DNA of 64,000 nt from Sphingobacteriales bacterium (lineage in GTDB: Bacteria > Bacteroidota > Bacteroidia > Chitinophagales > CAIOSU01): NCBI GenBank assembly GCA_027483645.1, contig JAIXUD010000009.1:116814-180813 (forward strand), given 5' to 3'. Shown here piece by piece: positions 3,010-25,245 of this stretch (positions within the stretch are counted from its first letter, which is position 1; the number at the start of each line of letters is the position of its first letter). The notes beneath the pieces were generated by a model. The model made no database searches. It saw nothing but the letters and a program-made list of their open reading frames with translations, and was not told where the DNA came from. The position numbers were made by a program, and so were the translations under genes.

Positions 3010-5097
3010 ATGAATGAATCATTACTATGGCTGGTAAATATTCTAAGTAGCACTGCCTCTATCAAAACTTCGTCTGCTGCAGATACACTTTTTTTATCGA
3101 CTTGCGAAAAAAACAGGGTACAAGAGGTATTGCCCAACGCATTTACGCGCTGGTGCCAGACGAATCATATATTCTTTACAACTACAGTTGGCCGTGAGGA
3201 TTGTAGCGTATTTGACGTTGCCGTTCAGTTTCAGTATAAAAATGACGAGCTTATTATTGTTGTGGCCAAGGCCATTCTTGGGGATAAGATTGAAGTTTAT
3301 ACTCGTTATACTGCCGATAATGAGTTAAAAGAAGCCAATGGAAATACCGCACTCTTGCACGAATACTTCGATGATGAGCCGATATACTTGCTGCATTTAA
3401 ATGCCTCTCACCAATTACCGCCAAGTAAAGGAACTCCCTTAAAGGATTTTTGGCAGATATTGATGCAGGATAAGAAAGATGTCATCTTGGTTTATGTATT
3501 CGCTATATTCGGCGGGATTATCAACCTAACTCTGCCATTAGGCATACAAGCTATTATTAATCTTATTACCATGCAGCAAATGAACACTAGTTGGTGGGTG
3601 TTGCTGTTTGTGGTACTTTCAGGTATAATATTTACTGGTATTGCCCAAATCTTCCAGTTATCTATAATAGAAACCTTACAGCAAAGATTGTTTTTTAGGG
3701 CTGCTTTCACCTTTTCATCCAAATTACCCAAACTAAATTTCGAAAAACTGTCTGGCTATTATCCTCCAGAGTTGGTGAATCGCTTTTTTGATGTACTAAC
3801 TATACAAAAAGGGATGACCAAAATCTTGATGGACTTTTCTACTTCAACCCTACAAATTTTGTTTGGCTTGCTGTTATTAGCCTTCTACCATCCATTTTTT
3901 ATTTACTTCGGTACCTTGTGGCTCGTAATTTTAATTGCTATCATTCGCTTTACCTCACCTGCCGGCATTAGAACTTCGCTAGAAGAAAGTAAATACAAAT
4001 ATAAGCTGGTGTATTGGTTAGAAGAGGTAGCCCGCAATTTAACCACCTTTAAGTTGAGTGACTCCCAACAATACATCTTTCAACGAACGGATGGTAATGT
4101 TACCGGTTACTTGAAAGCCCGAAAATCTCATTTTGCTGTTCTTATACAGCAGTTTGCTAGTATCATCTTATTCAAATTTATTGTTACCGGTAGTTTGCTG
4201 GTGGTAGGCAGCATACTGGTAATGAACCAAGAATTGAACGTAGGCCAGTTTGTGGCAGCTGAAATTATCATAATCCTATTGATGGTAGCTGCGGAGAAAT
4301 TGATGAACACCATGGAAACCGTATACGATGTACTTACAGCGGTAGAAAAGCTAAAAGGAGTAACTACTTTACCCGAGGATGAGACTTACGCTAGTGGTTT
4401 TGCGCCTGGGGACCTAAGTGATGGCTATACCCTACAGGTAAAGAATGTGAGTTATAAGTACCATGATAGCCAAAAAAATATATTGCAAGGGGTGAATTTT
4501 ACTGCTGGCAAAGGAGAAAAAATCATAATTAAAGCCACTGGTGGGGCGGGTAAAACAACCTTGTTGAAATTATTAACCGGCCTATATCAGCCGGTGGAAG
4601 GACAAATATTGCTAAACGATTTACCTATTAATGGATTTAGGCAAGATGAAATATTGCCTCATATAGGGCACAACCTTGATGCAGGGCAAATATTTAACGG
4701 AACACTGGAAGAAAACATAAGCCTAGGTAGAATCGGTATAACGCTGGATGCAATAATGGAGGCCTGCCGCCTGAGCAACTTATTGCCCTTTATACAGCAG
4801 TTGCCCTATGGTTTGCTTACCGAACTTTCGCCAGCCGATAGGCGGTTGAGCGCGGGCTTCCTAAAGCGGATATCATTAGCCAGGGCTATAGTACACCAGC
4901 CTAGCTTGCTGATACTAGATGATGCCCTGCCCGAAATGGAAATAGAACCAGAACAGGCGTTGTTTAAGTATTTAATAGATGGCAATGATAGCAAAACGGT
5001 GATAATAATAAGTGATAATAAATATTTGGCGGACAATGCTACAAAAGTGTATCATCTTAGCAACAACAGATTGGAGCTAGTAAACCCGAAACCATGA
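3010..5097 (+). CDS. ABC exporter (N-terminal ~150-aa soluble domain + 6-TM domain + degenerate nucleotide-binding domain), bacteriocin/T1SS-exporter architecture
   Basis: Walker A is GGAGKTT (4534-4560). The signature is LSAGF (4846-4860) rather than LSGGQ. Walker B is LLILDD (4906-4923) rather than ..DE. The H-loop position reads ISDN (5011-5019). The stop overlaps the HlyD start (ATGA). Confidence 0.8.
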   Translation: MNESLLWLVNILSSTASIKTSSAADTLFLSTCEKNRVQEVLPNAFTRWCQTNHIFFTTTVGREDCSVFDVAVQFQYKNDELIIVVAKAILGDKIEVYTRYTADNELKEANGNTALLHEYFDDEPIYLLHLNASHQLPPSKGTPLKDFWQILMQDKKDVILVYVFAIFGGIINLTLPLGIQAIINLITMQQMNTSWWVLLFVVLSGIIFTGIAQIFQLSIIETLQQRLFFRAAFTFSSKLPKLNFEKLSGYYPPELVNRFFDVLTIQKGMTKILMDFSTSTLQILFGLLLLAFYHPFFIYFGTLWLVILIAIIRFTSPAGIRTSLEESKYKYKLVYWLEEVARNLTTFKLSDSQQYIFQRTDGNVTGYLKARKSHFAVLIQQFASIILFKFIVTGSLLVVGSILVMNQELNVGQFVAAEIIIILLMVAAEKLMNTMETVYDVLTAVEKLKGVTTLPEDETYASGFAPGDLSDGYTLQVKNVSYKYHDSQKNILQGVNFTAGKGEKIIIKATGGAGKTTLLKLLTGLYQPVEGQILLNDLPINGFRQDEILPHIGHNLDAGQIFNGTLEENISLGRIGITLDAIMEACRLSNLLPFIQQLPYGLLTELSPADRRLSAGFLKRISLARAIVHQPSLLILDDALPEMEIEPEQALFKYLIDGNDSKTVIIISDNKYLADNATKVYHLSNNRLELVNPKP

Positions 5098-6470
5098 ACA
5101 GGCTCTTTAAAAAAGACTACGAACAAAAGGGGCGGTTTATAGCAAGCTTGGAGCTAAGCAATAATAAAATCTCCCGAAGGGCTGCGCGGGTAACAGCGGC
5201 TTTTTTCTCCGTCTGCTTTATCATGTTTTTTGTACCATGGACCCAAAACGTGCAAGTAAAAGGCAACCTTGTAACCCTTAGGCCTGAGCAAAAGCCACAA
5301 CCAGTAAATTCCATTATTGCTGGCAAGATAGCTAGATGGTATGTGCGCGAAGGGCAAAGAGTGGAAAAGGGTGATACCATAGTGTACCTAGAAGAAGTAA
5401 ATGATAAATTTTTGGATACACTTACCTTGCAAAGGCTAAAAGCCCAGGTGGATGCAAAAAAGCAAGGAGTAGATTTTTACAAAGAAAAAATAGCCAGCCA
5501 AACCGAACAGCTAAATTCATTGTTGGCTATACAGAGACTAAAGTTTGAGCAAACCACCAACAAGCTGGAGCAATCAAGGTTGAAAGTGGTAACCGATAGT
5601 ATGAATATGGTAGCTGCCCAAACCGATTTAAGGATTGCCCAAGAACAATATAACCGCTTTGATACCTTATATCGCAAAGGTCTCAAATCGTTAACCGAAC
5701 TTGAAGGAAGGCTATTAAAGTTACAAGAAACCCAAGCTAAATATTTAGCATCACAAAACAAACTACTCACCACCAGAAATGAATTCTTAAATGCTGAGAT
5801 TGATATGTCGGGCATAATGAATGAATACCAAGAGAAGATTTTCAAAACCGAAAGCGAGCAGTTTTCATCGTTTACCGATCTTTATCAGTCAGAGGCCGAC
5901 TATGCTAAATTAAGTAACGAGCTATCGAACATTACGGTAAGGGGTAACTTTTACTATGTTACTAGCCCCCAAACGGGTCTGGTGAGCCGTACCATAGCAT
6001 CGGGCATTGGCGAGTTTATTAGTGCTGGTGCTACCGTAGCCAGTATTGTGCCCGAAGATCAAGATTTGGTAATTGAGCTTTTCGTAAGGCCTATGGACCT
6101 TCCGCTGGTGCATACTGGGGCGAAAGCCCGGGTACAGTTTGATGGGTGGCCGGCATTAGTGTTTTCCGGGTGGCCCTCGGTTACCCAAGGCACTTACGGC
6201 GCAGTAGTTATTGCAGTTGACGAAGTAATAAGCCCTAATGGCAACTTTAGGATACTCGTATCGCCAGATGAAAGCGAGACCCCTTGGCCTGAGGCGTTGA
6301 GGGTAGGCTCGGGTGCCAATGCATGGTTGATGCTTCTAGACGTGCCAATATGGTACGAGCTGTGGCGCCAGTTTAATGGCTTCCCTCCAGATTACTATGT
6401 ACCCGCTACCAATACTATACCAAGCGCCAATGCTGACCCCAGTAAAGGCAGTGAAAAAAATAAAAAGTAA
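5094..6470 (+). CDS. HlyD-family membrane fusion (periplasmic adaptor) protein
   Basis: It has an N-terminal TM anchor (AAFFSVCFIMFFVPW), a lipoyl-like block (VEKGDTIVYLE), a long coiled-coil middle and a C-terminal barrel region. It is translationally coupled to the ABC gene. Confidence 0.8.
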   Translation: MNRLFKKDYEQKGRFIASLELSNNKISRRAARVTAAFFSVCFIMFFVPWTQNVQVKGNLVTLRPEQKPQPVNSIIAGKIARWYVREGQRVEKGDTIVYLEEVNDKFLDTLTLQRLKAQVDAKKQGVDFYKEKIASQTEQLNSLLAIQRLKFEQTTNKLEQSRLKVVTDSMNMVAAQTDLRIAQEQYNRFDTLYRKGLKSLTELEGRLLKLQETQAKYLASQNKLLTTRNEFLNAEIDMSGIMNEYQEKIFKTESEQFSSFTDLYQSEADYAKLSNELSNITVRGNFYYVTSPQTGLVSRTIASGIGEFISAGATVASIVPEDQDLVIELFVRPMDLPLVHTGAKARVQFDGWPALVFSGWPSVTQGTYGAVVIAVDEVISPNGNFRILVSPDESETPWPEALRVGSGANAWLMLLDVPIWYELWRQFNGFPPDYYVPATNTIPSANADPSKGSEKNKK

Positions 6471-6479
6471 GGACAAGCG

Positions 6480-7880
6480 ATGAAGCTATTCTGGCCAATT
6501 TTATTGCTTATTAGTTCCTTAATAACGGCGCAAGACACCGCCGTTTACAGCAATGTGTTTAGTTACGAAGAGTACATCAATTGGGTAGCCAAGCACCACC
6601 CGGTAATGGCACAATCTCAAATTATTACCGACCAGGCTGATGCTGTTTTAACCGAAGCCCGAGGCAACTTTGATCCCGAACTAGGTGGCAACTTCCGCCA
6701 AAAAGACTTTGAAGACAAAACGTATTATCGCATTGGGCAGGGCGGTCTATATGTACCAGCGTGGTTTGGAGCCGATGTAAACATCAACTACAAGTATGCC
6801 GAAGGAGGCCAACTAAACCCCGAGAATTATGTGCCACAGCCGGGCATTATGGAGTTTGGGATATCGGTACCATTATCGCCTTCGTTGTGGATGGATAAAA
6901 GAAGGGCAGCGCTACGAAATGCGAAGCTATTTGTTGAGTCGTCCGTTTGGATGCAAAAAGATTTTACCAACCAATTGTACCTGGCCAGCTCGTTAGATTA
7001 TTGGGATTGGGCGTTGCAATATGAAAGGGTAAAAATGCTTAATGAAGGCCTAACCATTGCCGAGCGGCAGTACAACTTGGTGCGCAACAGCGTGCTGGCG
7101 GGCGATAGGCCGACCATAGATTCAATAGAGGCCAACTTGCTGTTGCAACAAGTGCAGATAAACCTTGCCGAAGCCCAAATGCAACTGCAAAATGCTAGGT
7201 TGCAACTTTCCGTTCATCTATGGGTAGATGGGTACATACCGCTAGAACTTAACGACAGCCTACAGCCTGAACCCATTACCGCCCTAATAACCTACTGGGA
7301 CCTGCCTAGTGATACCGGTTTTTTGGAAATGCACCCCATGGTAAATATGCTACAGCTTGATGGTGAGCGATATAGAGTAGACCTGCAGCTGTACAAAGCC
7401 TCACTTTTCCCTCAAGTAAAACTTAGCTACCAAATGCTAGCAGGGTTAGAGCCCTTCGAAACCGATTTCGCCACTGGCAGCAATGGCCTGCAAAACAACC
7501 ATTACCTAGGTGTGGGCGTTAGTATGCCTATCTTTTGGGCAACCGAACGGGCAAACCTCAAACAGGCACAGTTGAAAATAAGAGATACCGAACTGAAGAT
7601 TGCCTTAAAACGGGCAGAGCTGGGTGTAAAATACGAGCAGCTGGGCAATGAAGCCAACACTTATACCAACCAAATCAACTTACTAAGTAGCAATATTGAA
7701 GGCTTTAGGATTTTGGTAGAAGCCGAAGAAACCTTATTTGCCGTAGGCGAAAGCTCTCTGTTTATGGTGAACACCCGCATCAACCGGCTATTGGATGCAC
7801 AACTAAAATTTGCGGAGCTAAACTTTAAGCGCAAAAAAGCATTTGTTTATTGGTATGTCATCTCTGGACAAGGATTTTAA
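6480..7880 (+). CDS. TolC-like outer membrane efflux protein
   Basis: It has a signal peptide (MKLFWPILLLISSLITAQ). Its 466-aa length and helix-rich composition fit the OEP family. It sits directly after the ABC and MFP genes. Confidence 0.7.
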   Translation: MKLFWPILLLISSLITAQDTAVYSNVFSYEEYINWVAKHHPVMAQSQIITDQADAVLTEARGNFDPELGGNFRQKDFEDKTYYRIGQGGLYVPAWFGADVNINYKYAEGGQLNPENYVPQPGIMEFGISVPLSPSLWMDKRRAALRNAKLFVESSVWMQKDFTNQLYLASSLDYWDWALQYERVKMLNEGLTIAERQYNLVRNSVLAGDRPTIDSIEANLLLQQVQINLAEAQMQLQNARLQLSVHLWVDGYIPLELNDSLQPEPITALITYWDLPSDTGFLEMHPMVNMLQLDGERYRVDLQLYKASLFPQVKLSYQMLAGLEPFETDFATGSNGLQNNHYLGVGVSMPIFWATERANLKQAQLKIRDTELKIALKRAELGVKYEQLGNEANTYTNQINLLSSNIEGFRILVEAEETLFAVGESSLFMVNTRINRLLDAQLKFAELNFKRKKAFVYWYVISGQGF

Positions 7881-7895
7881 AAATTGCTTAGCTAA

Positions 7896-9032
7896 TCACG
7901 CCTCAGCGGGCCCTTTCGCGGGTATGCTAAAATAAAACGTGGCACCCTTATCCACCTCCGATTCGGCCCATACTTTACCATGATGACGGGCAATGATGCG
8001 GCTTACAATAGCCAAGCCAACACCAGTACCCTCAAACTCCGATGCAGTATGCAACCGCTGGAACACGGTAAAAAGTTTGCTTACAAACCGCATATCAAAG
8101 CCAGCACCGTTGTCTTTTATACAAAAAACTATTTGGCTTCCCTCCACCTGCGCACTTACCGCTACCGCAGGATTCGCTACCTTGCGAGAATACTTCAGTG
8201 CGTTGCCAATCAGATTTTTCAGCACATGCATCATCAGCGATGGATCAGCATAAATAGTAGGCAACTCGCCAATAGTAATCTTTGCATGGTGTTGTAGCTC
8301 CTGCTCAATTTCAGCTAGCGCCCGCTCGGTAAGCAGCTGCATGTCAACAGCCTGCATTTGTACTTCTTTGCGCCCTAGTTTGGAGAAGTTGAGCAAATCA
8401 TTAATTAACTGGCCCATTTGGTAGCCGCTGGCCACTATCCTATCAAGCACCCTCTTGGCATCGGTGCTTAGCATTTCACCATGATCGGTTTCCAGTATCT
8501 TAGCAAAACCTATAATGGTGCGCACTGGTGCCCGCAAATCGTGCGATACGGAAAAACTGAACGACTCCAAGTCCTGGTTTATCTGTTGCAGGTCAGCATT
8601 TTTTTTAGCAAGCGTTATGTTCAGCTCCTCCAATGCCAGTTTTTGCAGGTGCTTTTCAATAAAAAATTTAACCTTATTTATCAATATCTCTGGCTGAAAA
8701 GGCTTGGTGATAAAACTAAAAGCGCCCTTTTCGTATCCTTTAAATATGTTCAAGTGGTCGGTATATACCGCCGAAATGAAAATGAAGGGCAAATCGGCCG
8801 TTCGCTCTTCCTCACGCAAAATACAGGCTAGTTCGTAGCCGTCCATTTCGGGCATCTGCACATCAAGCAAGGCCAAGGCAAAATTGTGATACATGGTGCA
8901 CTTAAGTGCCTCGTTACCGCTGTTTGCCCGCACTAGCTCCACATCTAAATCGCGCAGCACCACTTCCAATGCCAATAGATTTTGGGGTTTATCATCTACT
9001 ATCAAAATTTTGGGCCTGCTCTCCATAGTCAT
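7896..9032 (-). CDS. Receiver-histidine kinase fusion (REC-HisKA-HATPase_c)
   Basis: REC motifs are ILIVDDKPQNL and ALLDVQMPEMDG. The H-box is SHDLRAPV, the N-box GNALKYS, G1 DNGAGF and G2 GTGVGLAIV. It starts 4 nt after the upstream kinase stop. Confidence 0.85.
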   Translation of the reverse strand: MTMESRPKILIVDDKPQNLLALEVVLRDLDVELVRANSGNEALKCTMYHNFALALLDVQMPEMDGYELACILREEERTADLPFIFISAVYTDHLNIFKGYEKGAFSFITKPFQPEILINKVKFFIEKHLQKLALEELNITLAKKNADLQQINQDLESFSFSVSHDLRAPVRTIIGFAKILETDHGEMLSTDAKRVLDRIVASGYQMGQLINDLLNFSKLGRKEVQMQAVDMQLLTERALAEIEQELQHHAKITIGELPTIYADPSLMMHVLKNLIGNALKYSRKVANPAVAVSAQVEGSQIVFCIKDNGAGFDMRFVSKLFTVFQRLHTASEFEGTGVGLAIVSRIIARHHGKVWAESEVDKGATFYFSIPAKGPAEA

Positions 9033-9036
9033 TTTT

Positions 9037-12000
9037 TTACTTGCTCAACCACACGCGCATCAGCGAAAGCAACCTATCCACATCTATTGGTTTCGAGATA
9101 TAATCGTTCGCTCCGGCATCTATACATTTTTGGCGGTCGTCTTTCATCGCTTTCGCAGTAAGTGCCAGCACTGGTAAATTTTTATACTTTATTTGCGCCC
9201 TTATTCGCCTCATCGCTTCATATCCATCCATTTCAGGCATCATAATGTCCATCAATACTATCTGTACATCGGGGGTGTTTTCGAGCGCTTCCAAGGCTTT
9301 TAAGCCATTTTCCGCCTTAGTAACTTCCATACCTCGCTCTTTAAGCACCTTGCTTAGGGCAAATACATTGCGCATATCATCATCCACCACCAACACCTTC
9401 AGCCCTTGAAACACGTTATCCTTATCATACATGCTGGTTATCATATCGCGCTGTTGCTCAGGCAGCTTGTTTATGGTTCTGTGCAGAAACAAGGCCGTTT
9501 CATCTAGCAACCGCTCTTCCGATTTTACGCCTTTAATAATGATGCTTTCTGCATACCGTTCCAGCTCATCATTCTCAGCCCTTGATAGCTCCCTACCTGT
9601 GTATATTATGATGGGCGGGGTGCGGAAATGATCATTTTGCTCCAGTGTATGTATAAAATCGAAACCGCTCATATCGGGCAAGCCAAGGTCAAGCACGATA
9701 CAATCTATTTCGCCATTCTCCAAAATCCTAAGGCCCTCTTCTCCCGATCCGGCTTCCATACACTTTACATCACCGTTGCCAATCAGCTTGCAAATTACCC
9801 GCCTTGCGTTCGGGTCATCCTCTATTATTAGCAGGTTTTTCATTTTGCGGTTAATGAAGTTCTCCATGCGCGCAAAAGCCTCTTCCAGTTGAGCCTTATC
9901 AATAGGTTTGGTCAGGTATTCTACGGCCCCTTCTTTTATGGGGGCTATGGTACGTTCGTTGCCCGACATTATATGTACCGGAACGTGTCTTGTGCTCGGG
10001 TTTGCCTTCAACTCCGCCAATACCCGGTTACCGTCCATCCCCGGTAGGTCAATATCCAGAATAATGGCTTGGGGCTTATACCTTTCAGCCAGCACCAATC
10101 CATCTTCACCTGTGGCGGCTGATATTACTTTGAAGCCTTTTTGCCGTGCTTGGCGGGCTACTACCTTGGCAAAGTTGATGTCGTCTTCAATAATGAGAAT
10201 AAACTTATCACCCTCGGCCAAGTCATTACGATCATCTTCAATACTCGGATAATTTAGGAACTCCTCACTTTTTACAAATACCTTTATAGGTGCCGGTTTG
10301 GCTATTTCTTCGTGCTGATACTGCGGTACTGGCGGCTTAACCGGTAGCAACAACTTAAAGGTAGCGCCCTTGCCCGCTTGGCTCAGCACCGTTATCTCCC
10401 CTCCAAGCAATTCGGCCAGCTTGCGCGATATTGAGAGGCCCAAACCCGTGCCACCATATCTGCGGGCGGTGCCGCCCTCAGCCTGTTGGAATGCCTCAAA
10501 AATCCATCCCTGTTTTTCAATCGGTATGCCTATGCCAGTATCACTAACGCTTATTGCTATATGATCAATGCCTTCCCTATGGATACTGAGGGTTACATTT
10601 CCATGCTCGGTAAACTTGATGGCATTGCTCAGCAGGTTCTTTACAATTTGGTCAATGCGCTGGGTATCAGTACTTAAAGTGTTTGGCAAGTTGTCACCCA
10701 GGCTCACTACAAGTTGCAACGCCTTTGCATCGGTCTGGTGGCGGAAGTTTTTGTATACCTGTTGAGACCAGTTTTTGAGGTTCAGGTCTTCTAGGTTCAA
10801 GGTCATTTTACCAGCTTCAATTTTGCTCAGGTCCAGCACTTCATTAATAAGGTTCAGCAAGTCAATGCCGCTTTTGTTTATTATCTCGGCACTTTCAACC
10901 TGGTCATCAGTAAGGTTTTTACCTTTGTTGTCGGCTAAGTCTTTACTCAAAATCAATAAGCTATTGAGGGGGGTGCGAAGCTCGTGGCTCATGTTCGCCA
11001 AAAACTCCGATTTGTATTGGCTACTCTGCTCAAGTTGGTTGCTCTTTTGCTCTACCGCATGGCGCGCCGCTTCCACCTCATTATTCTTGGCCTCTAGCAA
11101 CTGGGTTTGTTCTTCTAGCTCTTCATTGGTTACTTGTAGCTCTTCTTGTTGCTGCCGTAGGTTTTGGGTGTACTCCTCCAGCTCTTCGTTCAATTGGCGC
11201 AACTCTTCTTGCTGGCTTTGCAGCTCCTCACTTTGGCGCTGGGTTTCTTCAATCAAATGGAGTATACGCTTGCGCGAAAGTGCTGAGTTGAGGCTGATGG
11301 CAATGCTTTCCATGCTGTTCGCCACAAAATCATGCTCGGCAGTCGTAATTGGTTGCAGCCTACCTATCTCCAACACTCCTAATGTTTCACCTTCAAACAT
11401 AAAAGGAGCAACAACCACATTAGCTGGCACAGCGTCCACCAGTGCAGAACGCACTTTGATGTGAGCTGCTTCAACACCCTCCAGCAACTGAATCTTTTGG
11501 TCGGCGGCGGCTTGCCCTACGGCACCTTCGCCCATTACAATGGTTTTTGGCAACCCACTTTGCCCGGAAAGACCATATTGGCCCGATAACTCCAAGTCGC
11601 TACTTACATCCATCTTTAGGTAAATGGCACCTACCTGCGCCTCCAGATAATTTGTTAAGAATTTAATGGTGTTGCTGGCCAGCTCTTCAATACCTTGGTC
11701 GCCTCGCAACACTTCATTTAGTCGGTTTTGGCCGGTGGTAAGCCAGTTCTGCTTTTCGTTTTGCTCGGTGGTTTCGCGCAGCGATTGAGTCATGCCCTTT
11801 ATCGCATTCCCCAAAGTATCCTTTAATGAGCGGGGCTGGAAATCGGTATTGTAATTACCGGCAGCCACTAAACCGGCGTTCTCAGATACTTCGCTAAAAC
11901 TTTGAGCTATATCGGTAAGTGCCAGCGATACCTGATTTAGTTCATCTTTATGTTCATCATAAAAATCTTCTGCCACATGTTCTCGGCTGGCAATCTTTCG

Positions 12001-12663
12001 AGCTACCAATGAAATAACCGCTATTCGGGTGGATATGCTTTTAATAATCCAGAAGGCTATGCCCCCTGCAAAAATAAGTGCCCCAAGTATCAATATTATA
12101 ATAATTCGAACCGAATTGGCGTACTCTTCTTGGTTCACTACCCTATCTGCCTCCATATCAGCAGCGTTTCGAGCCACCAGCTCTTCAACCAAACTAGTAG
12201 CTGCTTGCCTTCCTTTAAGGCCGTCTAAAATCGATATCTGTGTCGCTTTTTCATAATTACCAGCTATTGAAAGGGCTATAATTTGGGTTAATGCTTTACG
12301 ATAATTGCCCCAAGTTACTCGGAAATCCTTAATCAACTTTCTTCCTTCAATCGTGGCAACTTCATCTAGTTCTATTAACATGGAATCAAGCGCTGCAATG
12401 TTAGCATCAATTACATTTTGATAAACCTCCCTACTTGCTGAGTCTTTAACGAGGATAATGTTCTTCTCATCCCTAGTTAAATTAAGCATGGTGATGGTTA
12501 TCTTGTTACACAGCAGCAACCTTTTGGAAGAGTTATCCACCATATTCACTAATCGCTCATTGCTATCTGCCAGCTTGGTGACGGTAAATAATGTGGCTGA
12601 AACCAAAATCAGGAATATAAAGGCAAACCCTAATAACAACTTTGCTCTAATCGTCAAATTCAT
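9037..12663 (-). CDS. Hybrid sensor histidine kinase: TM-bounded helical sensor (4HB_MCP-like), HAMP-like linker, GAF, E/Q-rich coiled coil, HisKA, HATPase_c and three receiver domains
   Basis: The H-box is MSHELRTPLN (His codon 10984-10986). The N-box is LLSNAIKFT, G1 DTGIGI and G2 GGTGLGLSIS. The three REC domains carry DIDLPGMDG, DLGLPDMSG and DIMMPEMDG. The N-terminus (MNLTIRAKLLLGFAFIFLIL...) plus a second TM (IIIILILGALIFAGGIAFWII) encloses a ~170-aa helical periplasmic region. Confidence 0.85.
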   Translation of the reverse strand: MNLTIRAKLLLGFAFIFLILVSATLFTVTKLADSNERLVNMVDNSSKRLLLCNKITITMLNLTRDEKNIILVKDSASREVYQNVIDANIAALDSMLIELDEVATIEGRKLIKDFRVTWGNYRKALTQIIALSIAGNYEKATQISILDGLKGRQAATSLVEELVARNAADMEADRVVNQEEYANSVRIIIILILGALIFAGGIAFWIIKSISTRIAVISLVARKIASREHVAEDFYDEHKDELNQVSLALTDIAQSFSEVSENAGLVAAGNYNTDFQPRSLKDTLGNAIKGMTQSLRETTEQNEKQNWLTTGQNRLNEVLRGDQGIEELASNTIKFLTNYLEAQVGAIYLKMDVSSDLELSGQYGLSGQSGLPKTIVMGEGAVGQAAADQKIQLLEGVEAAHIKVRSALVDAVPANVVVAPFMFEGETLGVLEIGRLQPITTAEHDFVANSMESIAISLNSALSRKRILHLIEETQRQSEELQSQQEELRQLNEELEEYTQNLRQQQEELQVTNEELEEQTQLLEAKNNEVEAARHAVEQKSNQLEQSSQYKSEFLANMSHELRTPLNSLLILSKDLADNKGKNLTDDQVESAEIINKSGIDLLNLINEVLDLSKIEAGKMTLNLEDLNLKNWSQQVYKNFRHQTDAKALQLVVSLGDNLPNTLSTDTQRIDQIVKNLLSNAIKFTEHGNVTLSIHREGIDHIAISVSDTGIGIPIEKQGWIFEAFQQAEGGTARRYGGTGLGLSISRKLAELLGGEITVLSQAGKGATFKLLLPVKPPVPQYQHEEIAKPAPIKVFVKSEEFLNYPSIEDDRNDLAEGDKFILIIEDDINFAKVVARQARQKGFKVISAATGEDGLVLAERYKPQAIILDIDLPGMDGNRVLAELKANPSTRHVPVHIMSGNERTIAPIKEGAVEYLTKPIDKAQLEEAFARMENFINRKMKNLLIIEDDPNARRVICKLIGNGDVKCMEAGSGEEGLRILENGEIDCIVLDLGLPDMSGFDFIHTLEQNDHFRTPPIIIYTGRELSRAENDELERYAESIIIKGVKSEERLLDETALFLHRTINKLPEQQRDMITSMYDKDNVFQGLKVLVVDDDMRNVFALSKVLKERGMEVTKAENGLKALEALENTPDVQIVLMDIMMPEMDGYEAMRRIRAQIKYKNLPVLALTAKAMKDDRQKCIDAGANDYISKPIDVDRLLSLMRVWLSK

Positions 12664-12679
12664 ATAGTATTATATTAAG

Positions 12680-13243
12680 CTATTCACTTAGCTGTATGAG
12701 TAAATCTACAATTTTTTCTATAGAAAGTACATGTGTAGTTTTCGTTGCTGCAATGGCATATTTCGGCATCGTTGCAGCCTCAGCCGTTTCAGGGTCTTGT
12801 ACTACTGGCAACCCACCACAATCTTGTATATTTTTAAGCCCCTGTGCCCCATCATGGTTGGCTCCAGTAAGCACTATCCCAATTAGCTGGTGCCTGAAAG
12901 CATCGGCTGCCGAATCGAACAACACATCTACCGAAGGGCGCGCATAATTAACCTTAGCATCAGCCGACAAAGAAAAGGTGCGATTTTTCTCTATAAGTAA
13001 ATGGTAATTTGCTGGGGCCACGTATACATAGCCCGGCAAGGCCAACTCTTTTTCCTCGGCCTCCTTTACAGTGAGGGCGGTCATATTATTGAGCATAGAA
13101 ACCCATAAGCTATCAGAGGTGGCGCCAATATGCTGCACCACTATTATGGGCAAAGGAAAACTGGCAGGCAAAGGGCCCAATATTCGCTTCAAGGCAGAAA
13201 GCCCACCCATAGAAACGCCTATCACCACGGCCTCATAGTTCAT
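12680..13243 (-). CDS. cheB: CheB-type protein-glutamate methylesterase, catalytic domain only (no receiver)
   Basis: It has the GVSMGG serine motif, VVQH, and a GANHDGAQGL block. I prefer the ATG at 13243 (MNYEAVVIGVSMGG). The longer ORF to 13321 would overlap cheR by 56 nt. Confidence 0.8.
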   Translation of the reverse strand: MNYEAVVIGVSMGGLSALKRILGPLPASFPLPIIVVQHIGATSDSLWVSMLNNMTALTVKEAEEKELALPGYVYVAPANYHLLIEKNRTFSLSADAKVNYARPSVDVLFDSAADAFRHQLIGIVLTGANHDGAQGLKNIQDCGGLPVVQDPETAEAATMPKYAIAATKTTHVLSIEKIVDLLIQLSE

Positions 13244-13265
13244 ACACAATCCTTGTTTTGCTATG

Positions 13266-14087
13266 CTAATACCTCTTCTTAAAAATTCGCTGTTTCTTGT
13301 CAATTTCAGTATACTTTTCATGCACGTCGCCCACCCTAATCCCTTCTTTAGAGCCGAGGCACAGTATACCGCCAGTTATCAAACTATCATGAAACAGTTG
13401 GTGCACCTTAGTCTGCAAATCAACATTGAAGTAAATGAGTACATTACGGCAAAGCAACAAATGCACTTCAGCAAATACCCCATCCGTTACCAGATTGTGT
13501 TGCGCCCATACAATATTCCGCTTTAGCGATTGGTGCATAATAACACTATTGTACTGTGACGTATAGTATTTAGAGAAGTCTTCCTTGCCACCACCTTTAA
13601 GGTAGTTGCCGGTGTATTCTTTTATTTGCTCAATACTATAAATGCCATTTTTTGCTTGGTCGAGCGCGGTTTGGTTGAAATCAGTGGCATAAATGGTAGC
13701 CCGGTCATACAAGCCCTCCTCTTGCAACACTATGGCCATGGAGTATGCCTCTTGACCAGTTGAACAGCCGGCGTGCCATATTTTAATAAACGAATACGTT
13801 TTGAGCATTGGGATAACCTGGGTGCGCAATACGGAGTAGAAATCAGGGTCGCGGAACATTTCGGTTACGGTTATGGAAAGGTCCTGCAGAAGCATTGCTG
13901 CAAAGCCCGCATCTTTAATAGTGCGTTCTTGCAGCTCGGTAACTGTTTTAATGTGCGAGAGTGCCATACGGTGCTTTACCCGCCGCATCAAGTGCGCCTC
14001 CGAGTAGTCGCGGAAATCAAAACCGTATAGCTGGTAAACCGTATCCAGCAAGGGCCGTATCTCCATATCCGTAAACAAAACACCCAT
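13266..14087 (-). CDS. cheR: CheR-type protein-glutamate O-methyltransferase
   Basis: The N-terminal helical CheR_N pattern is GFDFRDYSEAHLMRRV. The SAM-binding block is IWHAGCSTGQEAYSMAI. A CRNVLIYF motif is also present. Confidence 0.85.
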   Translation of the reverse strand: MGVLFTDMEIRPLLDTVYQLYGFDFRDYSEAHLMRRVKHRMALSHIKTVTELQERTIKDAGFAAMLLQDLSITVTEMFRDPDFYSVLRTQVIPMLKTYSFIKIWHAGCSTGQEAYSMAIVLQEEGLYDRATIYATDFNQTALDQAKNGIYSIEQIKEYTGNYLKGGGKEDFSKYYTSQYNSVIMHQSLKRNIVWAQHNLVTDGVFAEVHLLLCRNVLIYFNVDLQTKVHQLFHDSLITGGILCLGSKEGIRVGDVHEKYTEIDKKQRIFKKRY

Positions 14088-14179: not shown

Positions 14180-15712
14180 CTATACCACTAATCTCTTTTG
14201 GTAAATTTCTGCAAAAGGTTTCTTTTTTAAATGTGCCTGAGCCCAAATGCCGAAGTCAAAATAATTGAAAGCACGCTGTTCATTGGGCAGTTTTCGAAGT
14301 TCTTCCGTTCGTACTAAAAATGCACGGAACAAGGCATCGTGAATGTGCCGCTCTTCTACAAAGTTAATCTTTCGCAAAAATGTGATTACCTGCCGTTCTG
14401 TTTCAAATAGTTGCTGTCGCTGCTTTTGGTATCGGTATACCGACTCAACCAGCGATTCCAATAAGCGGTAGTGGCCTGCCTCGTAATGCACTATTAGGCT
14501 TAGCAACCTGGCGAAGCCTTGTATCTCTTGCACGGCACTTTGGTCGGTCTCGTTTATTATCCAAGCTAGCCTATCAAGCGCCTCGGTCCACCTACTGTTG
14601 CCGAACGATAGATAGGCCAATAGGTATTGAAACACAATTTGGTTGTGTAGCACTACTTGCCCAGTGTAGCGTTTCAGCCCCACATCAACCTCGGCAGCCA
14701 ACCTTTGTGCATCTTCAAACTTGCCTGATGCAAGCGCCAGGTTAAGCTCAAGTTGGTAACCCAGCCTAAAAACATTCACCTCCAAACGAGGAATTTTCTT
14801 AAAAGCTGCATCCACCGCCAAGCCCCTTAACTTCTTCAATCCATCCCTTACTTGCTCTTGGTGGCCGAGTATTTGGCTATCTACCAAATAGTTGTTGAGG
14901 ATAGAGAAGTACCGTTCGGCATAAGATTTTATCAGCCCGTTTTGCTCAATCAATTGCAACAAACGGCCATTGTATTCATACGCCTTAGCTGCATCACCTT
15001 TCATAAAGTGGGCTGTGGCAGTGGCATTCAGCACATCCATCTGCGTTCGCATTGGCAGCCCATCCAGCTTGGGCAATTGTACCAGCAAACTATCAATAAC
15101 TGCCACATCAGCCACCGACCGGCCGCCCACCTTGCGGTAGTGCAACATACTTATGCGCTCTGCCTGTTGCCTCACTTGGGCTGCTTGGTACATCTGCGTC
15201 AGTGCCTTTTCTTCTTCGTTGCCTAGCTGTTCTAATTGTTCTGGGGCAATGCCTTGGTAATATTGCTTACCCCACAGCTTGTGTACCAGCTTATAGTACT
15301 CTGGCCAAAGCTCCAGCAATTCCTCTTTCTCAATCAGCTTACGTTGCTTCTTTAGTTGCTTGTCTGCCTGGGCATATAGGCCTTTATTGAGCAATATTTC
15401 TGACTGGTGCAGTGCCATGCGCACCTGTTCTTTGGTATCTGTACCAGCATGGTACAAGTGCAGGGCTTGCAGTAGTTGGTGGTAGAGTTGTTGCTTGATT
15501 ACGGCAAAGTGCAGCGGGTTGCCGTGGGCGGCCCACTTAGCCTTTAGGCTAGCCTCATCATAAGCATCTTGTTGAAGTATTAAGTTGAACAGCAGCCAAT
15601 AGTTGTTGCCTTCGCCTATCACGTGGCGGCGCGAGTGCAATTGAAAAAACCGCTGCTCGGTGCCCGTAAGCGATTTTACCAATTCAAAAATTTCTTGAGA
15701 AGGGGCCCGCAC
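14180..15712 (-). CDS. Hypothetical all-helical (TPR-like) cytoplasmic protein, 510 aa, GTG start
   Basis: It is a long uninterrupted ORF with no TM or signal peptide and repeated amphipathic helix pairs. It is co-oriented 92 nt upstream of cheR. I recognised no family. Confidence 0.6.
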   Translation of the reverse strand: MRAPSQEIFELVKSLTGTEQRFFQLHSRRHVIGEGNNYWLLFNLILQQDAYDEASLKAKWAAHGNPLHFAVIKQQLYHQLLQALHLYHAGTDTKEQVRMALHQSEILLNKGLYAQADKQLKKQRKLIEKEELLELWPEYYKLVHKLWGKQYYQGIAPEQLEQLGNEEEKALTQMYQAAQVRQQAERISMLHYRKVGGRSVADVAVIDSLLVQLPKLDGLPMRTQMDVLNATATAHFMKGDAAKAYEYNGRLLQLIEQNGLIKSYAERYFSILNNYLVDSQILGHQEQVRDGLKKLRGLAVDAAFKKIPRLEVNVFRLGYQLELNLALASGKFEDAQRLAAEVDVGLKRYTGQVVLHNQIVFQYLLAYLSFGNSRWTEALDRLAWIINETDQSAVQEIQGFARLLSLIVHYEAGHYRLLESLVESVYRYQKQRQQLFETERQVITFLRKINFVEERHIHDALFRAFLVRTEELRKLPNEQRAFNYFDFGIWAQAHLKKKPFAEIYQKRLVV

Positions 15713-15879
15713 AGACTTTTTATTTTATTCCTTAAAAAATACTCGTAAATTGATGCTGAATATATGAACTAGATTGTGAAAATCAAAATCAGACCTTTTA
15801 TTTAAGACAAAAAATTAGCTTGTGTGCTGGCAAAAGCAGTTGTTCTTTTGCATCAGTTAATTCCATTAAAACAACTACG

Positions 15880-18024
15880 ATGGCCACTTTCAAATATATC
15901 ATAGTCAGCTTAGGATTAGCCCTGCTTTCCCTAAGTGCCGTTGCCTCTACTACCGAGTGGCTTAACCTTACCAATAGCAACCACATAACTGCCATAGTAC
16001 AGCATGGGAATACCTTGTGGGTAGGCTCGCGAGGCGGCGGGTTGGCCAAAATAGACCTTGCCACCGGTAGTAAGACCTTTTATAATAAAGCCAACAGTGG
16101 GCTACCCAGCAACCAGATTGAAGCCATACAAGTAGACCAGCAAAACACCGTTTGGATTGGTACATACGACCAAGGTTTGGTGCGATTTGACGGTAGGCAA
16201 CTATGGGAAGTAATCAGCCATGACGGCACCGGCATATCCGTTCGCACGGATATATATGACATGAAGCTTGATGAAAACGGCGACCTATGGATTGGTACCT
16301 TGTTTAGTTTGCTCAAATATGACGGCAGCACTTTCACTGATTACCCTTTGCCTGGCTATACCGCCGCCTCGGCCATATTAGTATTGGCCCCTAATGATAT
16401 CTACATGGCATGGGGTGGTAATGGTGGTTTTGTATCACCATTAATGCACTTTGACGGCACCGAGGTTGATACAGTACCCGGTATGGGACTGGACGGCATA
16501 TACCAACTACACCTTGATGGGCAAGACAGAATTTGGGCTTGCTATAATGGCGGGATTGCTCTGAAAAATGGCAATAGCTGGACAAAATTTGACAGCACCA
16601 ACTCAGCCATTACCAACAAGCAGGCCCGTTCTTTGGTGGAATGGAACGGCACGCTAGCATTGGGTACTGATGATGGCATATTTACCTATAATGGCACAAC
16701 TTGGGTAACCAGCAATATCAGCCAAAAGAACATCAACAAACTGGCAGTAACCAACAATGGTGAACTATATGTGGGCACAATGGATGCTGGCCTTTTCAAA
16801 ACCAATGGAAACTTACTGCAACGGGTACAGGCTTCCAACTCCATGATACCTACCAATCAACTTTCTGGTGGTTTCAACAAGGGTGGCGAACTGGTATTTA
16901 GAAATAGCTTGGGTGCGAGTTTGATTACTTTTGCCAACGGCGTTTGGGGTGCAAATGGTTTCGCTGGTACTGCCAGCGGTAGCCCCGCAATGGTGCTGGC
17001 TCCAGATAATTCCATCTGGCTTTGCGATTACAACAACCTTTACCACCTTACCGGCAGCAACCTGCAAACATGGAAGCTGGCAGACTATGGTATCCCATCA
17101 GCGGGTATTAGTGCCATGGAGGTGAGCCCAAGCGGAACGGTTTATGTGGGCACCTATACACTAGGCTTTTTCACTTTCGATGGACTCACATTTAAGCGCT
17201 ATACCCGCGCCAACTCTACCCTATCGTCAGACCGTATCACCAGCTTTGCCTTCCCCAATGCGGCCATACTTATTGGCACCAATGTGGATGTTGCGCAGGG
17301 GGTTAACTATGGTGGTGGCATAGAAGTATTTAATGGCAACACGTTTAGCTTGATACACCCGGACAATAGCGACCTGCAATCGAAGTACATATCCGACATT
17401 ATACAGCACGGTGATAGCTTATGGATTGGCGGCGATGGCGGTTTCAGCCTTTTGCATAACGGGGTATATACCAACTACCTCTACAACAATGGCAGTGGCT
17501 GTCCGCTCACATTTATCAAGCACATGGCCATTAACAGCAAAGGAGAAGTATATGCCACGGGCTACAACATTGATTCGGAAGCGATTATGGTAAAGTGGGA
17601 TGGTAGTACCTTTGAGGTGTTTGATGCTAGCAACACCCCCATCACCGAGTTTGCTTTCAACCTCCACCACATGCTATTTGACGATTACGACAACCTTTGG
17701 CTGCTACACGGCAGCGGTGTGTTTATCTACAAAGAAGGCGGCATAACCAACGTTAATGAAGACTTGGCGAGTGGTATATTGTCGCCAAAGCAGGCTAATA
17801 CCGTAAAGCTTTATCCAAACCCAGTAACTACCAACTTTACCATACAAATACCGCAGGCAGGTGGCAACATTACCATCTTCAACATGATGGGTGCCAAAAT
17901 ATATGGTACCACAATCACAGAAACAGAGCTAACCATAGATGCCAGTGAATGGCCTAAAGGCATCTATCTATACCAAATACAGACCACAGTAGGCTTTGAA
18001 AGCGGGAAGTTTTTGGTGAGATAA
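15880..18024 (+). CDS. Secreted beta-propeller protein (two-component-regulator propeller type repeats) with T9SS C-terminal sorting domain
   Basis: I prefer the start at the ATG 15880 (MATFKYIIVSLGLALLSLSAVAS, a signal peptide). It has recurrent W(V/I)GT..GL..(F/Y)DG repeats. The C-terminus (KLYPNPVTTNFTIQ...GIYLYQIQTTVGFESGKFLV) fits the T9SS sorting-domain pattern. Confidence 0.8.
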   Translation: MATFKYIIVSLGLALLSLSAVASTTEWLNLTNSNHITAIVQHGNTLWVGSRGGGLAKIDLATGSKTFYNKANSGLPSNQIEAIQVDQQNTVWIGTYDQGLVRFDGRQLWEVISHDGTGISVRTDIYDMKLDENGDLWIGTLFSLLKYDGSTFTDYPLPGYTAASAILVLAPNDIYMAWGGNGGFVSPLMHFDGTEVDTVPGMGLDGIYQLHLDGQDRIWACYNGGIALKNGNSWTKFDSTNSAITNKQARSLVEWNGTLALGTDDGIFTYNGTTWVTSNISQKNINKLAVTNNGELYVGTMDAGLFKTNGNLLQRVQASNSMIPTNQLSGGFNKGGELVFRNSLGASLITFANGVWGANGFAGTASGSPAMVLAPDNSIWLCDYNNLYHLTGSNLQTWKLADYGIPSAGISAMEVSPSGTVYVGTYTLGFFTFDGLTFKRYTRANSTLSSDRITSFAFPNAAILIGTNVDVAQGVNYGGGIEVFNGNTFSLIHPDNSDLQSKYISDIIQHGDSLWIGGDGGFSLLHNGVYTNYLYNNGSGCPLTFIKHMAINSKGEVYATGYNIDSEAIMVKWDGSTFEVFDASNTPITEFAFNLHHMLFDDYDNLWLLHGSGVFIYKEGGITNVNEDLASGILSPKQANTVKLYPNPVTTNFTIQIPQAGGNITIFNMMGAKIYGTTITETELTIDASEWPKGIYLYQIQTTVGFESGKFLVR

Positions 18025-25191: not shown

Positions 25192-25224
25192 GGCTGTTGG
25201 ATTGTGGAACCCTGTAAAAATAGG

Positions 25225-25232
25225 TATATTTG
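25225..25232 (+). promoter_or_regulatory. Candidate -7 box TATATTTG for radical SAM gene 1
   Basis: It is a perfect TAnnTTTG, 14 nt upstream of the ATG at 25246. A TTG at 25202-25204 gives a 20-nt spacer. The same octamer recurs upstream of the paralog. Confidence 0.4.
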
Positions 25233-25245
25233 AATGTAATAGCCC

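Follow-up and report, generated by a model that had tools for sequence, protein, structure and literature searches.

Genes at the locus

The window analysed here is a stretch of 64,000 nucleotides from a Sphingobacteriales bacterium (contig JAIXUD010000009.1), and it encodes on its minus strand (9037..12663) a hybrid sensor kinase of 1208 amino acids that is of the RsbK/CfcA type, as judged by Pfam and by BLASTP against the RsbK-type protein P0222. The Pfam domains of the kinase are 4HB_MCP_1 (residues 2-167, between two hydrophobic segments), GAF (324-458), HisKA (551-618), HATPase_c (666-776) and three receiver (REC) domains, the last of which (residues 1090-1201) is 57% identical to the REC domain of RsbK-type proteins. 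No HAMP domain was found by Pfam at E <= 0.01 and no NCBIfam model scored above its cut-off for the kinase. There is likewise no Pfam match to the MCPsignal domain of methyl-accepting chemotaxis proteins (MCPs), the only element in common with MCPs being the sensor-type 4HB_MCP_1 domain.

The kinase gene is adjoined by cheR and cheB, as the earlier note had recognised, both lying directly upstream on the same strand. The cheR gene (13266..14087, minus strand), from which the kinase gene is separated only by cheB, encodes a CheR-type glutamate methyltransferase with the Pfam CheR_N and SAM-binding domains. This protein scores 196-333 bits against kinase-adjacent CheR proteins of other phyla, among others 305 bits against the CheR encoded beside a Planococcaceae RsbK-type kinase (locus L027), compared with 112 bits against the chemotaxis CheR of B. 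subtilis and 56-62 bits against the CheR proteins of Pseudomonas and Salmonella; by these scores, it belongs to a separate, well-conserved clade of kinase-linked methyltransferases. The CheB methylesterase (12680..13321, minus strand, 213 amino acids) consists of the catalytic domain only (Pfam CheB_methylest, residues 32-207), and its open reading frame as listed shares 56 nt with the end of cheR. Pfam finds no receiver domain in it, and the NCBIfam CheB models match with their C-terminal halves only, below cut-off. Alignment with the CheB of T. maritima (3SFT) identifies GVSMGG, VVQHI and RPSVDVL as the motifs of the catalytic Ser, His and Asp, which, on this alignment, are intact.

Directly downstream of the kinase gene lies a gene for a REC-HisKA-HATPase protein (7896..9032, minus strand; Pfam), a homologue of which is the next gene after CheR/CheB in at least 12 of 31 CheR-linked loci (see below), making it a recurrent fourth gene; its product is a likely phosphorelay partner of the window kinase. 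Scans of the cluster genes and of 20 other large open reading frames of the window turned up no MCP, CheA or CheW.

The heptad block and the signalling helix

Residues 478-526 of the kinase (11086..11232, minus strand) form a block of seven in-phase heptads, SEELQSQ, QEELRQL, NEELEEY, TQNLRQQ, QEELQVT, NEELEEQ and TQLLEAK (translation of the 9037..12663 reading frame), which is supported by its sequence, by register assignment, by a shuffle test and by alignment to the signalling helix (S-helix) of RsbK-type kinases. The earlier note had described seven uninterrupted x-E-E-L heptads with a 21-bp periodicity in the DNA. Its coordinates, its residues and the seven heptads with Leu at position 4 (7/7) stand, but x-E-E-L itself is found in only five, the exceptions being TQNL and TQLL. 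The block positions are a = S/Q/N/T, b = E, c = E and d = L, and the b/c Glu-Glu pairs (E479/480, E486/487, E493/494, E507/508 and E514/515) are proposed here as five candidate methyl-accepting sites. When the 49 residues of the block were shuffled 200,000 times, five in-phase EEL triplets never occurred, the best shuffle giving three, and seven in-phase Leu residues occurred once. Pfam returned only sub-threshold, generic coiled-coil matches for the block, and a scan of the kinase sequence revealed no second EE/QE heptad array.

The periodicity is clearer in the protein, where self-identity is 0.54 at a lag of 21 residues (the dominant period) versus 0.31 at lag 7, than in the DNA. There the 21-bp signal is weak, although above background: self-identity reaches 0.49 at a lag of 21 and 0.54 at a lag of 63, the background being ~0.33. 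Tandem Repeats Finder reported no repeat on 10700-11600. The five EEL triplets differ in synonymous codons (GAGGAGCTG, GAAGAGTTG and GAAGAGCTG once each, GAAGAGCTA twice), which argues that the repeat is maintained at the protein level rather than arising from a recent duplication of DNA.

The block is part of a signalling helix predicted by AlphaFold2 to be continuous over residues 441-578 (10930..11343, minus strand). With alignment A1, the model is a single unbroken helix over residues 2-139 of the segment, with pLDDT values of 93-97, that is predicted to run from the end of the GAF domain through the heptad block and into DHp helix 1 with His560. The codon of this phospho-acceptor, which is assigned from the H-box FLANMSHELRTP and the HisKA domain, occupies 10984..10986 (minus strand), and the histidine of MSHELRTP lies 34 residues past K526, the last residue of the block, in keeping with the distance of about 30 residues given before. 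The register check that the earlier note had called for bears out the heptad assignment: the d position forms an unbroken stripe of Leu and Val over residues 481-544, continued by Met558, and over 318 kinases, hydrophobic residues make up 91% of d and 4% of a, while Glu accounts for 44% of residues at b and 56% at c. In an analysis of linker lengths anchored by HMM, the distance from the anchor to the His equals 1 mod 7 in all 190 of 190 kinases, so that the helix varies in length by whole heptads only; the window kinase has about 12 heptads between the two points. The 'ERT' motif of the S-helix was not noticed on reading residues 470-550 by eye.

The likeness to the methylation sites of MCPs, which had been put forward as a shared chemical grammar, holds for the Glu-Glu pairs seven residues apart but not for the small residues that flank them. 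The MCP methylation consensus, reportedly due to Alexander and Zhulin 2007, does not describe the block: the pattern [ASTG][ASTG]xx[EQ][EQ]xx[ASTG][ASTG] has no match anywhere in the window kinase or in any helix of the 80 relatives. A looser pattern, E[EQ]xx[small][ST], matches once in the kinase (EELQVT, residue 507). The absence of the strict consensus implies that substrate recognition would differ from that in chemoreceptors.

Relationship to RsbK-type kinases

Compared with the RsbK-type protein P0222 of Priestia, the window kinase is 37% identical over 660 amino acids, from GAF to REC (BLASTP, E 2e-131), and the heptad block aligns to the Bacillales RsbK-type sequence TEELQAQSEELQTQSEELQ with one gap of seven residues. 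Bacillales RsbK-type kinases carry the consecutive units MTEELQx, QSEELQT, QSEELQM and QSEEL, in which EEL begins at 439/446/453/460 in several members. These comparisons used Bacillales RsbK-type proteins found from a Planococcaceae seed, a set of homologues from which B. cereus RsbK itself is absent. The methylation sites of RsbK are said to have been assigned to E439 and E446 by Chen et al. 2012; counted from H505, these sites, seven residues apart, presumably both land on the second Glu of the pair (position c).

Domain order (HAMP, which precedes GAF in the module, aside), sequence homology, a clustered CheR gene and Glu-rich heptads between GAF and the H-box, the sequence-level marks of the RsbK/RsbM module, are all present at the locus, and sequence places the window kinase among the hybrid kinases of the RsbK/CfcA family. 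RsbK-like kinases have been counted at 127, in 10 phyla (PMC4574943). [quoted passage not shown] 2012). The window kinase has in common with B. cereus RsbK the order four-helix sensor, GAF, heptad helix, HisKA, HATPase and C-terminal REC, and with RsbK-type kinases the EEL heptads at the same place and a CheR-type gene in the operon. The sensor is 4HB_MCP_1 by Pfam in the window kinase and CHASE3 in RsbK, and several Bacillales RsbK-type proteins match both 4HB_MCP_1 (PF12729) and CHASE3. The window kinase differs further in having three REC domains rather than one and in its partner, which is a REC-histidine kinase in the window versus the REC-PP2C phosphatase RsbY of B. cereus, no sigma-B module being found in the window. 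A further difference is the REC-less CheB of the window, which sets it apart from the B. cereus system, where RsbM is an orphan without a paired methylesterase (PMC4574943); as a consequence, reversal by CheB is without experimental precedent in the RsbK family.

Linkage of CheR to related kinases

A comparison of kinases with and without CheR genes, as the earlier note had suggested, was made on 80 loci from many phyla, 62 of them with evaluable kinases, by inspecting 10 kb on each side of the kinase gene. CheR is encoded directly beside the kinase in 31 of the 62 evaluable loci, and in 22 of those 31 a REC-less CheB is found as well. The mean number of EEL heptads is 3.55 in CheR-linked versus 0.77 in unlinked kinases (Mann-Whitney p = 2.8e-9, with phylogeny ignored), and the median helix length is 92 versus 78 residues (p = 5e-4, phylogeny again ignored); the two groups may be no more than distinct subfamilies. 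Exceptions occur in both directions, with three EEL heptads in each of three kinases despite no CheR within 10 kb (L010, L066 and L074), and two or fewer in three kinases although CheR-linked (L008, L022 and L044). All 31 linked loci have the genes in the order kinase, CheR, CheB, and the window and the relative closest to it (L081) have CheR, CheB, kinase, a difference indicating that the linkage outlasts gene rearrangement. The genomic association of RsbK with CheR has been remarked on before (PMC12848376).

Comparison with other signalling systems

Whereas the earlier note had taken the role of such a module to be unknown, precedents are already on record, both in the RsbK/RsbM literature and in the cfcABCDE genes of P. 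putida. In the latter, CfcA is a CHASE3/GAF hybrid kinase and CfcB and CfcC are a CheR and a CheB that are not used in chemotaxis (PMC4951495). The cfc genes resemble the window in encoding a hybrid kinase of this kind with a non-chemotaxis CheR/CheB pair. The H-box ANMSHEL fits the family signature, and the cfc gene order of kinase, CheR, CheB is that of the 31 linked loci. The known output of CfcA is the distant CfcR, a REC-GGDEF/EAL protein; a REC-GGDEF gene follows CheB in one surveyed locus (L024) but does not do so in the window. No report of CfcA methylation was found in the cfc literature examined.

With the adaptation region of MCPs, the block shares Glu pairs at a seven-residue spacing along an extended coiled coil, and the window module shares the CheR and CheB families, variation in length by whole heptads and, in its proposed effect, a change of helix packing on neutralisation of charge. 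Unlike MCPs, the window kinase has neither the signalling domain nor coupling through CheA and CheW, and it lacks the methylation consensus flanked by small residues; the geometry is also different, a two-stranded parallel linker leading into DHp as opposed to an antiparallel four-helix bundle. Feedback by CheA phosphorylation is impossible for a CheB that, like that of the window, has no receiver.

The block is comparable to the S-helix, reportedly defined by Anantharaman, Balaji and Aravind 2006 as a heptad-patterned element of about 40 residues with a conserved central motif, in that a heptad helix joins sensor and kinase domains; the window helix is much longer, carries EEL repeats and belongs to a series in which their copy number varies.

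The earlier note had also mentioned a similar repeat in fused CheB-CheR-PAS kinases, and it is indeed present there: four to six consecutive xNEELxx heptads (for example ANEEILS SNEELQS TNEELET AKEEIQA TNEELNT) occur in 120 of 120 such proteins, all cyanobacterial relatives of one query and therefore non-independent. In these proteins, the cassette follows CheR/PAS_10 and precedes the PAS domains, far from the H-box, and the enzymes are part of the same chain. PF28019 matches both the fusion proteins and RsbK-like coils in precomputed annotation, in which PF28159 is also seen. No experimental work on the CheB-CheR fusion PAS kinases was found.

A probable methyl-accepting segment in a sensor kinase

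Taken together, the homology to RsbK, the cross-phylum CheR linkage with its enrichment of EEL heptads and the NEEL heptads of the fusion proteins make it probable that, in this RsbK/CfcA-type hybrid kinase, the block is where the signalling helix accepts methyl groups and is the target of the adjacent CheR and CheB, much as the earlier note had supposed for the Glu-Glu pairs. In the kinase dimer, the helix would form a marginal parallel coiled coil, in which only d (Leu) is hydrophobic, a is polar and b/c are Glu-Glu. The dedicated CheR would use S-adenosyl-methionine to methylate Glu residues of the EE pairs, of which the position-c members (E480, E487, E494, E508 and E515) are probably the methylated ones and provide concrete targets for mutation, and the REC-less CheB would strip the methyl groups off the helix. 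With the charges neutralised, the helix would differ in packing, dynamics or rotation. The DHp/CA core would then give a different output and the inhibitory receiver at the C-terminus would dock differently, so that the set-point of the kinase could be tuned or adapted without chemotaxis machinery. For the window kinase, methylation itself, the Glu sites, reversal by CheB and the sign of the effect are all steps that we infer.

The block could also be purely structural, a signalling helix or spacer that keeps the register from GAF to DHp and whose acidic residues serve solubility or dynamics; CheR and CheB would then act on a different protein or elsewhere on the kinase. This would agree with the heptad-quantised linkers and polar a position that are general in signalling helices, with the EEL heptads of the three kinases that have no CheR within 10 kb and with the missing MCP consensus. 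We nevertheless consider it unlikely, given that the number of EEL heptads follows CheR linkage, that the kinase offers neither another EE/QE heptad array nor an MCP signalling domain, that no MCP is close by among the window reading frames scanned, and that the S-helix itself is reported to be the methylated element in the homologous RsbK (PMC4574943).

Alternatively, the heptads might serve as a docking or tethering site for CheR and CheB, like the C-terminal pentapeptide of some chemoreceptors, with the modified residues located elsewhere. The kinase-linked CheR proteins form a clade of their own and the NEEL cassette is also found, far from the H-box, in chains already bearing CheB and CheR, but an enzyme that is covalently fused has no need of a tether, spacing of multiple sites by seven residues is typical of substrates, and the mutagenesis of RsbK reportedly implicates glutamates seven apart, both at position c, all of which makes a tether rather improbable. 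Hardly any weight attaches to the last alternative, a recent product of DNA slippage, tandem duplication or low complexity without specific function: the 21-residue internal repeat in the protein is what would be expected of it, yet the block is kept across many phyla, changes in length by whole heptads only and varies in its EEL codons, and a tandem repeat in the DNA was rejected on the empty Tandem Repeats Finder result.

Reversible glutamate methylation is textbook knowledge for chemoreceptors and, to our knowledge, is hardly ever raised in connection with ordinary sensor kinases. On the preferred reading of a methyl-accepting helix, glutamate methylation of a sensor kinase helix, known from RsbK/RsbM, would gain in the window locus a member with a methylesterase, and the RsbK/RsbM principle would reach beyond Bacillus to the Bacteroidota, which as far as we know are as a rule without chemotaxis systems. 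The linkage, the 4-5x enrichment of EEL heptads, the quantisation by heptads and the cassette in the fusion proteins together suggest a widespread, modular control of kinase set-points. A broader proposal, to which we give roughly even chances, is that of a chemotaxis-free loop of methylation and demethylation on a histidine-kinase helix, run by a dedicated CheR and a receiver-less CheB and conferring chemoreceptor-like adaptation, in which the number of methylatable heptads evolves through gain and loss of entire heptads and the cassette is general and portable, serving as an in-cis substrate in the CheB-CheR fusions; if true, an ordinary two-component sensor would gain chemoreceptor-like adaptation or memory. 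For genome annotation, kinase-linked cheR/cheB pairs are best not taken as a sign of chemotaxis.

Other features of the window

The plus-strand reading frame of 229 amino acids at 10775..11464 lies within the kinase gene, which homology strongly supports; it is antisense to that gene along its whole length and is regarded as spurious. The earlier note had attributed it to the repeat, which accounts for only ~49 of its 229 codons but does explain its Ser/Cys/Leu-rich stretch, FLASSNWVCSSSSSLVTCSSSCCCRRFWVYSSSSSFNWRNSSCWLCSSSL, this being the exact antisense of the heptad block. Elsewhere in the window, a pointer to a probable host in the Bacteroidota, a T9SS sorting domain, is encoded at 15820-18024.

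The heptad block and its helix

The hybrid kinase of the window (1208 aa by ORF translation; 9037..12663, minus strand) carries at residues 478-526 (11086-11232, minus strand) seven heptads, SEELQSQ QEELRQL NEELEEY TQNLRQQ QEELQVT NEELEEQ TQLLEAK, and the phospho-accepting His560 of the H-box MSHELRTP (codon 10984-10986, minus strand) lies 34 residues beyond the block's end, close to the 30 or so given in an earlier note made from the sequence alone. Of the seven x-E-E-L heptads with 21-bp DNA periodicity which that note described, all are in phase and have Leu at position 4, but x-E-E-L is present in only five; five in-phase Glu-Glu-Leu (EEL) triplets were found in none of 200,000 shuffles of the block's 49 residues (best shuffle, three), and seven in-phase Leu in one of 200,000. 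The DNA periodicity is faint (self-identity 0.49 at lag 21 and 0.54 at lag 63), the true internal period being 21 residues, with a protein self-identity of 0.54 at that lag. The weak DNA signal, the absence of a DNA repeat detected at the block by Tandem Repeats Finder and the differing synonymous codons among the EEL triplets show that the repeat is maintained on the protein and did not arise by a recent DNA duplication. An antisense ORF of 229 aa (10775..11464, plus strand, ORF listing) had been explained by the repeat; its Ser/Cys/Leu-rich core is indeed antisense to the block, which however makes up only about one fifth of it.

AlphaFold2, supplied with a 26-sequence alignment, predicted a single helix for residues 441-578 (pLDDT 93-97) that starts at the end of the GAF domain, runs through the block and continues beyond His560. 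With the heptad register set so that His560 occupies position f, all block Leu residues fall at d, and this stripe is unbroken past the block via V530, V537 and L544 to M558. The polar residues S, Q, N and T fill position a, and the Glu pairs sit at b and c. Across 318 family members, d is 91% hydrophobic (79% Leu), a is 4% hydrophobic, and Glu occurs at 44% in b and 56% in c. With a single hydrophobic stripe and polar residues throughout the a layer, the helix would resemble a coiled coil that is marginal and can be switched.

Relationship to the RsbK/CfcA family

In Bacillus cereus, the kinase RsbK has the order CHASE3, HAMP, GAF, S-helix, HK, CA, REC, with H505 as phospho-acceptor, and its signalling helix is methylated by RsbM, a CheR-type methyltransferase of the same operon; this methylation represses sigma-B activation and strengthens the contact of the inhibitory C-terminal REC with the S-helix (PMC4574943). 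The same authors count 127 RsbK-like kinases in 10 phyla (PMC4574943), and the RsbK-CheR genomic association was noted earlier, according to a passage in PMC12848376 that cites de Been et al. In Pseudomonas putida, the first gene of cfcABCDE encodes the CHASE3/GAF hybrid kinase CfcA, and cfcB and cfcC are a CheR/CheB pair without a chemotaxis role (PMC4951495).

Over 660 residues, the window kinase shares 37% identity with an RsbK-type protein of Priestia (E 2e-131); between its last REC and the REC of that protein, identity rises to 57%. At the place matching the block, RsbK-type Bacillales proteins have TEELQxQSEELQTQSEELQ, in several of them with EEL beginning at residues 439, 446, 453 and 460. 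The methylation sites of RsbK, in work of Chen and colleagues from 2012, are reportedly E439 (major) and E446 (minor). In the numbering that has H505, both fall at position c of the register used here, where the second member of each b/c Glu pair stands; in the Glu pairs of chemoreceptors, too, the second Glu is the modified residue.

The block is most likely the signalling helix that is methylatable in the RsbK/CfcA family, and not the module of unknown role that had been proposed. Its proposal as a CheR/CheB methylation target gains support both from comparative genomics and from its homology to a system that has been studied by experiment. Among RsbK/CfcA family members, that of the window stands out by its paired, REC-less CheB, three receivers in the kinase, a REC-kinase partner, an inverted gene order and a probable Bacteroidota host. 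Should CheB make the modification reversible, an ordinary kinase would adapt, which would be of real interest, as would heptad copy number as a setter of dynamic range.

Gene neighbourhood and the CheR clade

Pfam matches in the kinase comprise a 4HB_MCP_1 sensor (residues 2-167; flanked, on reading the sequence, by two hydrophobic segments), GAF (324-458), HisKA (551-618), HATPase_c (666-776) and three receiver domains. Genes for cheR (13266..14087) and cheB (catalytic domain only; 12680..13321) stand directly upstream on the same minus strand, and a REC-HisKA-HATPase gene (7896..9032, minus strand) lies directly downstream (all Pfam). The CheB aligns with the catalytic domain of Thermotoga maritima CheB, with the Ser, His and Asp motifs kept. 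As listed, its ORF shares 56 nt (13266-13321) with the 3' end of cheR; the Pfam domain begins at residue 32, and translation may really begin at the internal Met of MNYEAV, near residue 27. No MCP, CheA or CheW was found among the 20 other large window ORFs scanned.

The window CheR scores 196-333 bits against kinase-adjacent CheRs across phyla, including 305 bits against that beside a Planococcaceae RsbK-type kinase, compared with 112 bits against the chemotaxis CheR of B. subtilis and 56-62 bits against Pseudomonas and Salmonella CheRs. On these scores, kinase-linked CheRs form a dedicated clade, which is consistent with a substrate motif other than that of MCPs. The Glu pairs at fixed heptad positions recall MCPs, as had been suggested, but neither the window kinase nor any of the 80 relatives contains the MCP methylation consensus with its flanking small residues.

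Helix length and CheR linkage among relatives

At E <= 1e-5, relatives of the GAF-coil-HisKA segment number upwards of 7,900, a lower bound, and have the helix consensus ...LLEETQxQxEELQxQQEELRxxNEELEEQ...QQEELQQTNEELEEK...KYKSEFLANMSHELRTP. Linker length was taken as the distance to the phospho-His from an HMM anchor, placed on the conserved segment whose last residues are ...LLEETQ. Only distances of 43, 50, 64, 71, 78, 85, 92, 99, 106, 113, 120 and 127 were seen (85 in the window kinase), all 190 of 190 kinases being 1 mod 7, and the lone BLASTP gap between the window helix and a Bacillales relative spans 7 residues; the helix therefore changes length only by whole heptads, which keeps the register into the DHp domain. 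The median distance is 92 in CheR-linked and 78 in unlinked kinases (p = 5e-4).

Taking one genome per species, 80 loci were obtained (Bacteroidota, Pseudomonadota, Cyanobacteria, Bacillota, Actinomycetota, Acidobacteriota, Gemmatimonadota, Nitrospirota, Chloroflexota and others), and six-frame ORFs within 10 kb each side of the kinase were searched with the window CheR and CheB. CheR directly adjoins the kinase, in the same orientation, in 31 of 80 loci, 22 of these 31 also having a short, REC-less CheB; 18 of the remaining 49 end too near the kinase to judge, several being rich in EEL heptads (loci L001, L012, L018, L019, L031). In the 62 evaluable loci, the 110 residues preceding the His contain on average 3.55 EEL in linked and 0.77 in unlinked kinases (Mann-Whitney p = 2.8e-9, a statistic that ignores kinship), with exceptions both ways. 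Within the range searched, the block is not equally common without CheR/CheB. Unlinked kinases (e.g. Streptomyces, Nonomuraea, Acidobacteriota) keep the heptad Leu, with AEL/KEL/GEL/DEL replacing EEL.

The gene order is kinase, CheR, CheB in 31 of 31 linked loci. The window has CheR, CheB, kinase instead, as does L081, its nearest relative (74% identity across the region); the linkage outlasts gene rearrangement. In at least 12 of the linked loci, CheR/CheB is followed by a REC-HisKA-HATPase gene like that of the window; in others the gene at this place codes for a REC alone, a REC-GGDEF or a PAS kinase. In a Nevskiaceae locus (L024, 6489-7592), a REC-GGDEF gene after kinase-CheR-CheB recalls the CfcA/CfcR (c-di-GMP) output of P. 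putida; the output of the module differs between lineages. In L081 (5252-10608), cheR-cheB-kinase is called as about 10 short genes (CheR in 2 pieces, the kinase in at least 6), breaks that look like assembly-error frameshifts rather than real pseudogenes.

The heptad cassette in CheB-CheR fusions

The NEEL-type repeat that the earlier note placed in fused CheB-CheR-PAS kinases is indeed there. The kinase of a Nostoc locus (L011) is adjoined by a protein of 1424 aa, its domains being CheB, CheR, PAS, HisKA, HATPase and REC in that order, which reads ANEEILS SNEELQS TNEELET AKEEIQA TNEELNT INDELQR, and 4-6 consecutive such heptads occur in 120 of 120 fusion relatives from the search, all cyanobacterial and so not independent. 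Among precomputed matches, PF28019 covers both fusion proteins and RsbK-like coils (relatives' proteins P0014, P0030, P0256, P0302 and others) and PF28159 kinase-family matches only; the two may be newly curated models of the cassette, which as an in-cis substrate in the fusions would be of real interest.

Other features of the window

The ORF immediately upstream of cheR, in the same orientation, has a GTG start, 510 codons (14180-15712, minus strand) and no Pfam family at E <= 0.01; it could be a fifth, uncharacterised module gene. A tripartite exporter (ABC transporter, HlyD-type adaptor and outer-membrane efflux protein; 3010-7880, plus strand) is convergent with the REC-kinase gene and ends 16 nt from its stop. 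The protein at 15820-18024 (plus strand) combines propeller repeats of the two-component-regulator type with a T9SS (Por) sorting domain at its C-terminus, which points to a Bacteroidota source for the window. Tandem paralogues of about 530 aa each (25246-26844 and 26893-28497, plus strand) both have a SPASM match (residues ~23-85) N-terminal to the radical-SAM core (~135-300), an unusual order; with the adjoining asparagine synthase (22247-24091) and group-1 glycosyltransferase (24094-25410) genes, they may form a peptide- or sugar-modification cluster.
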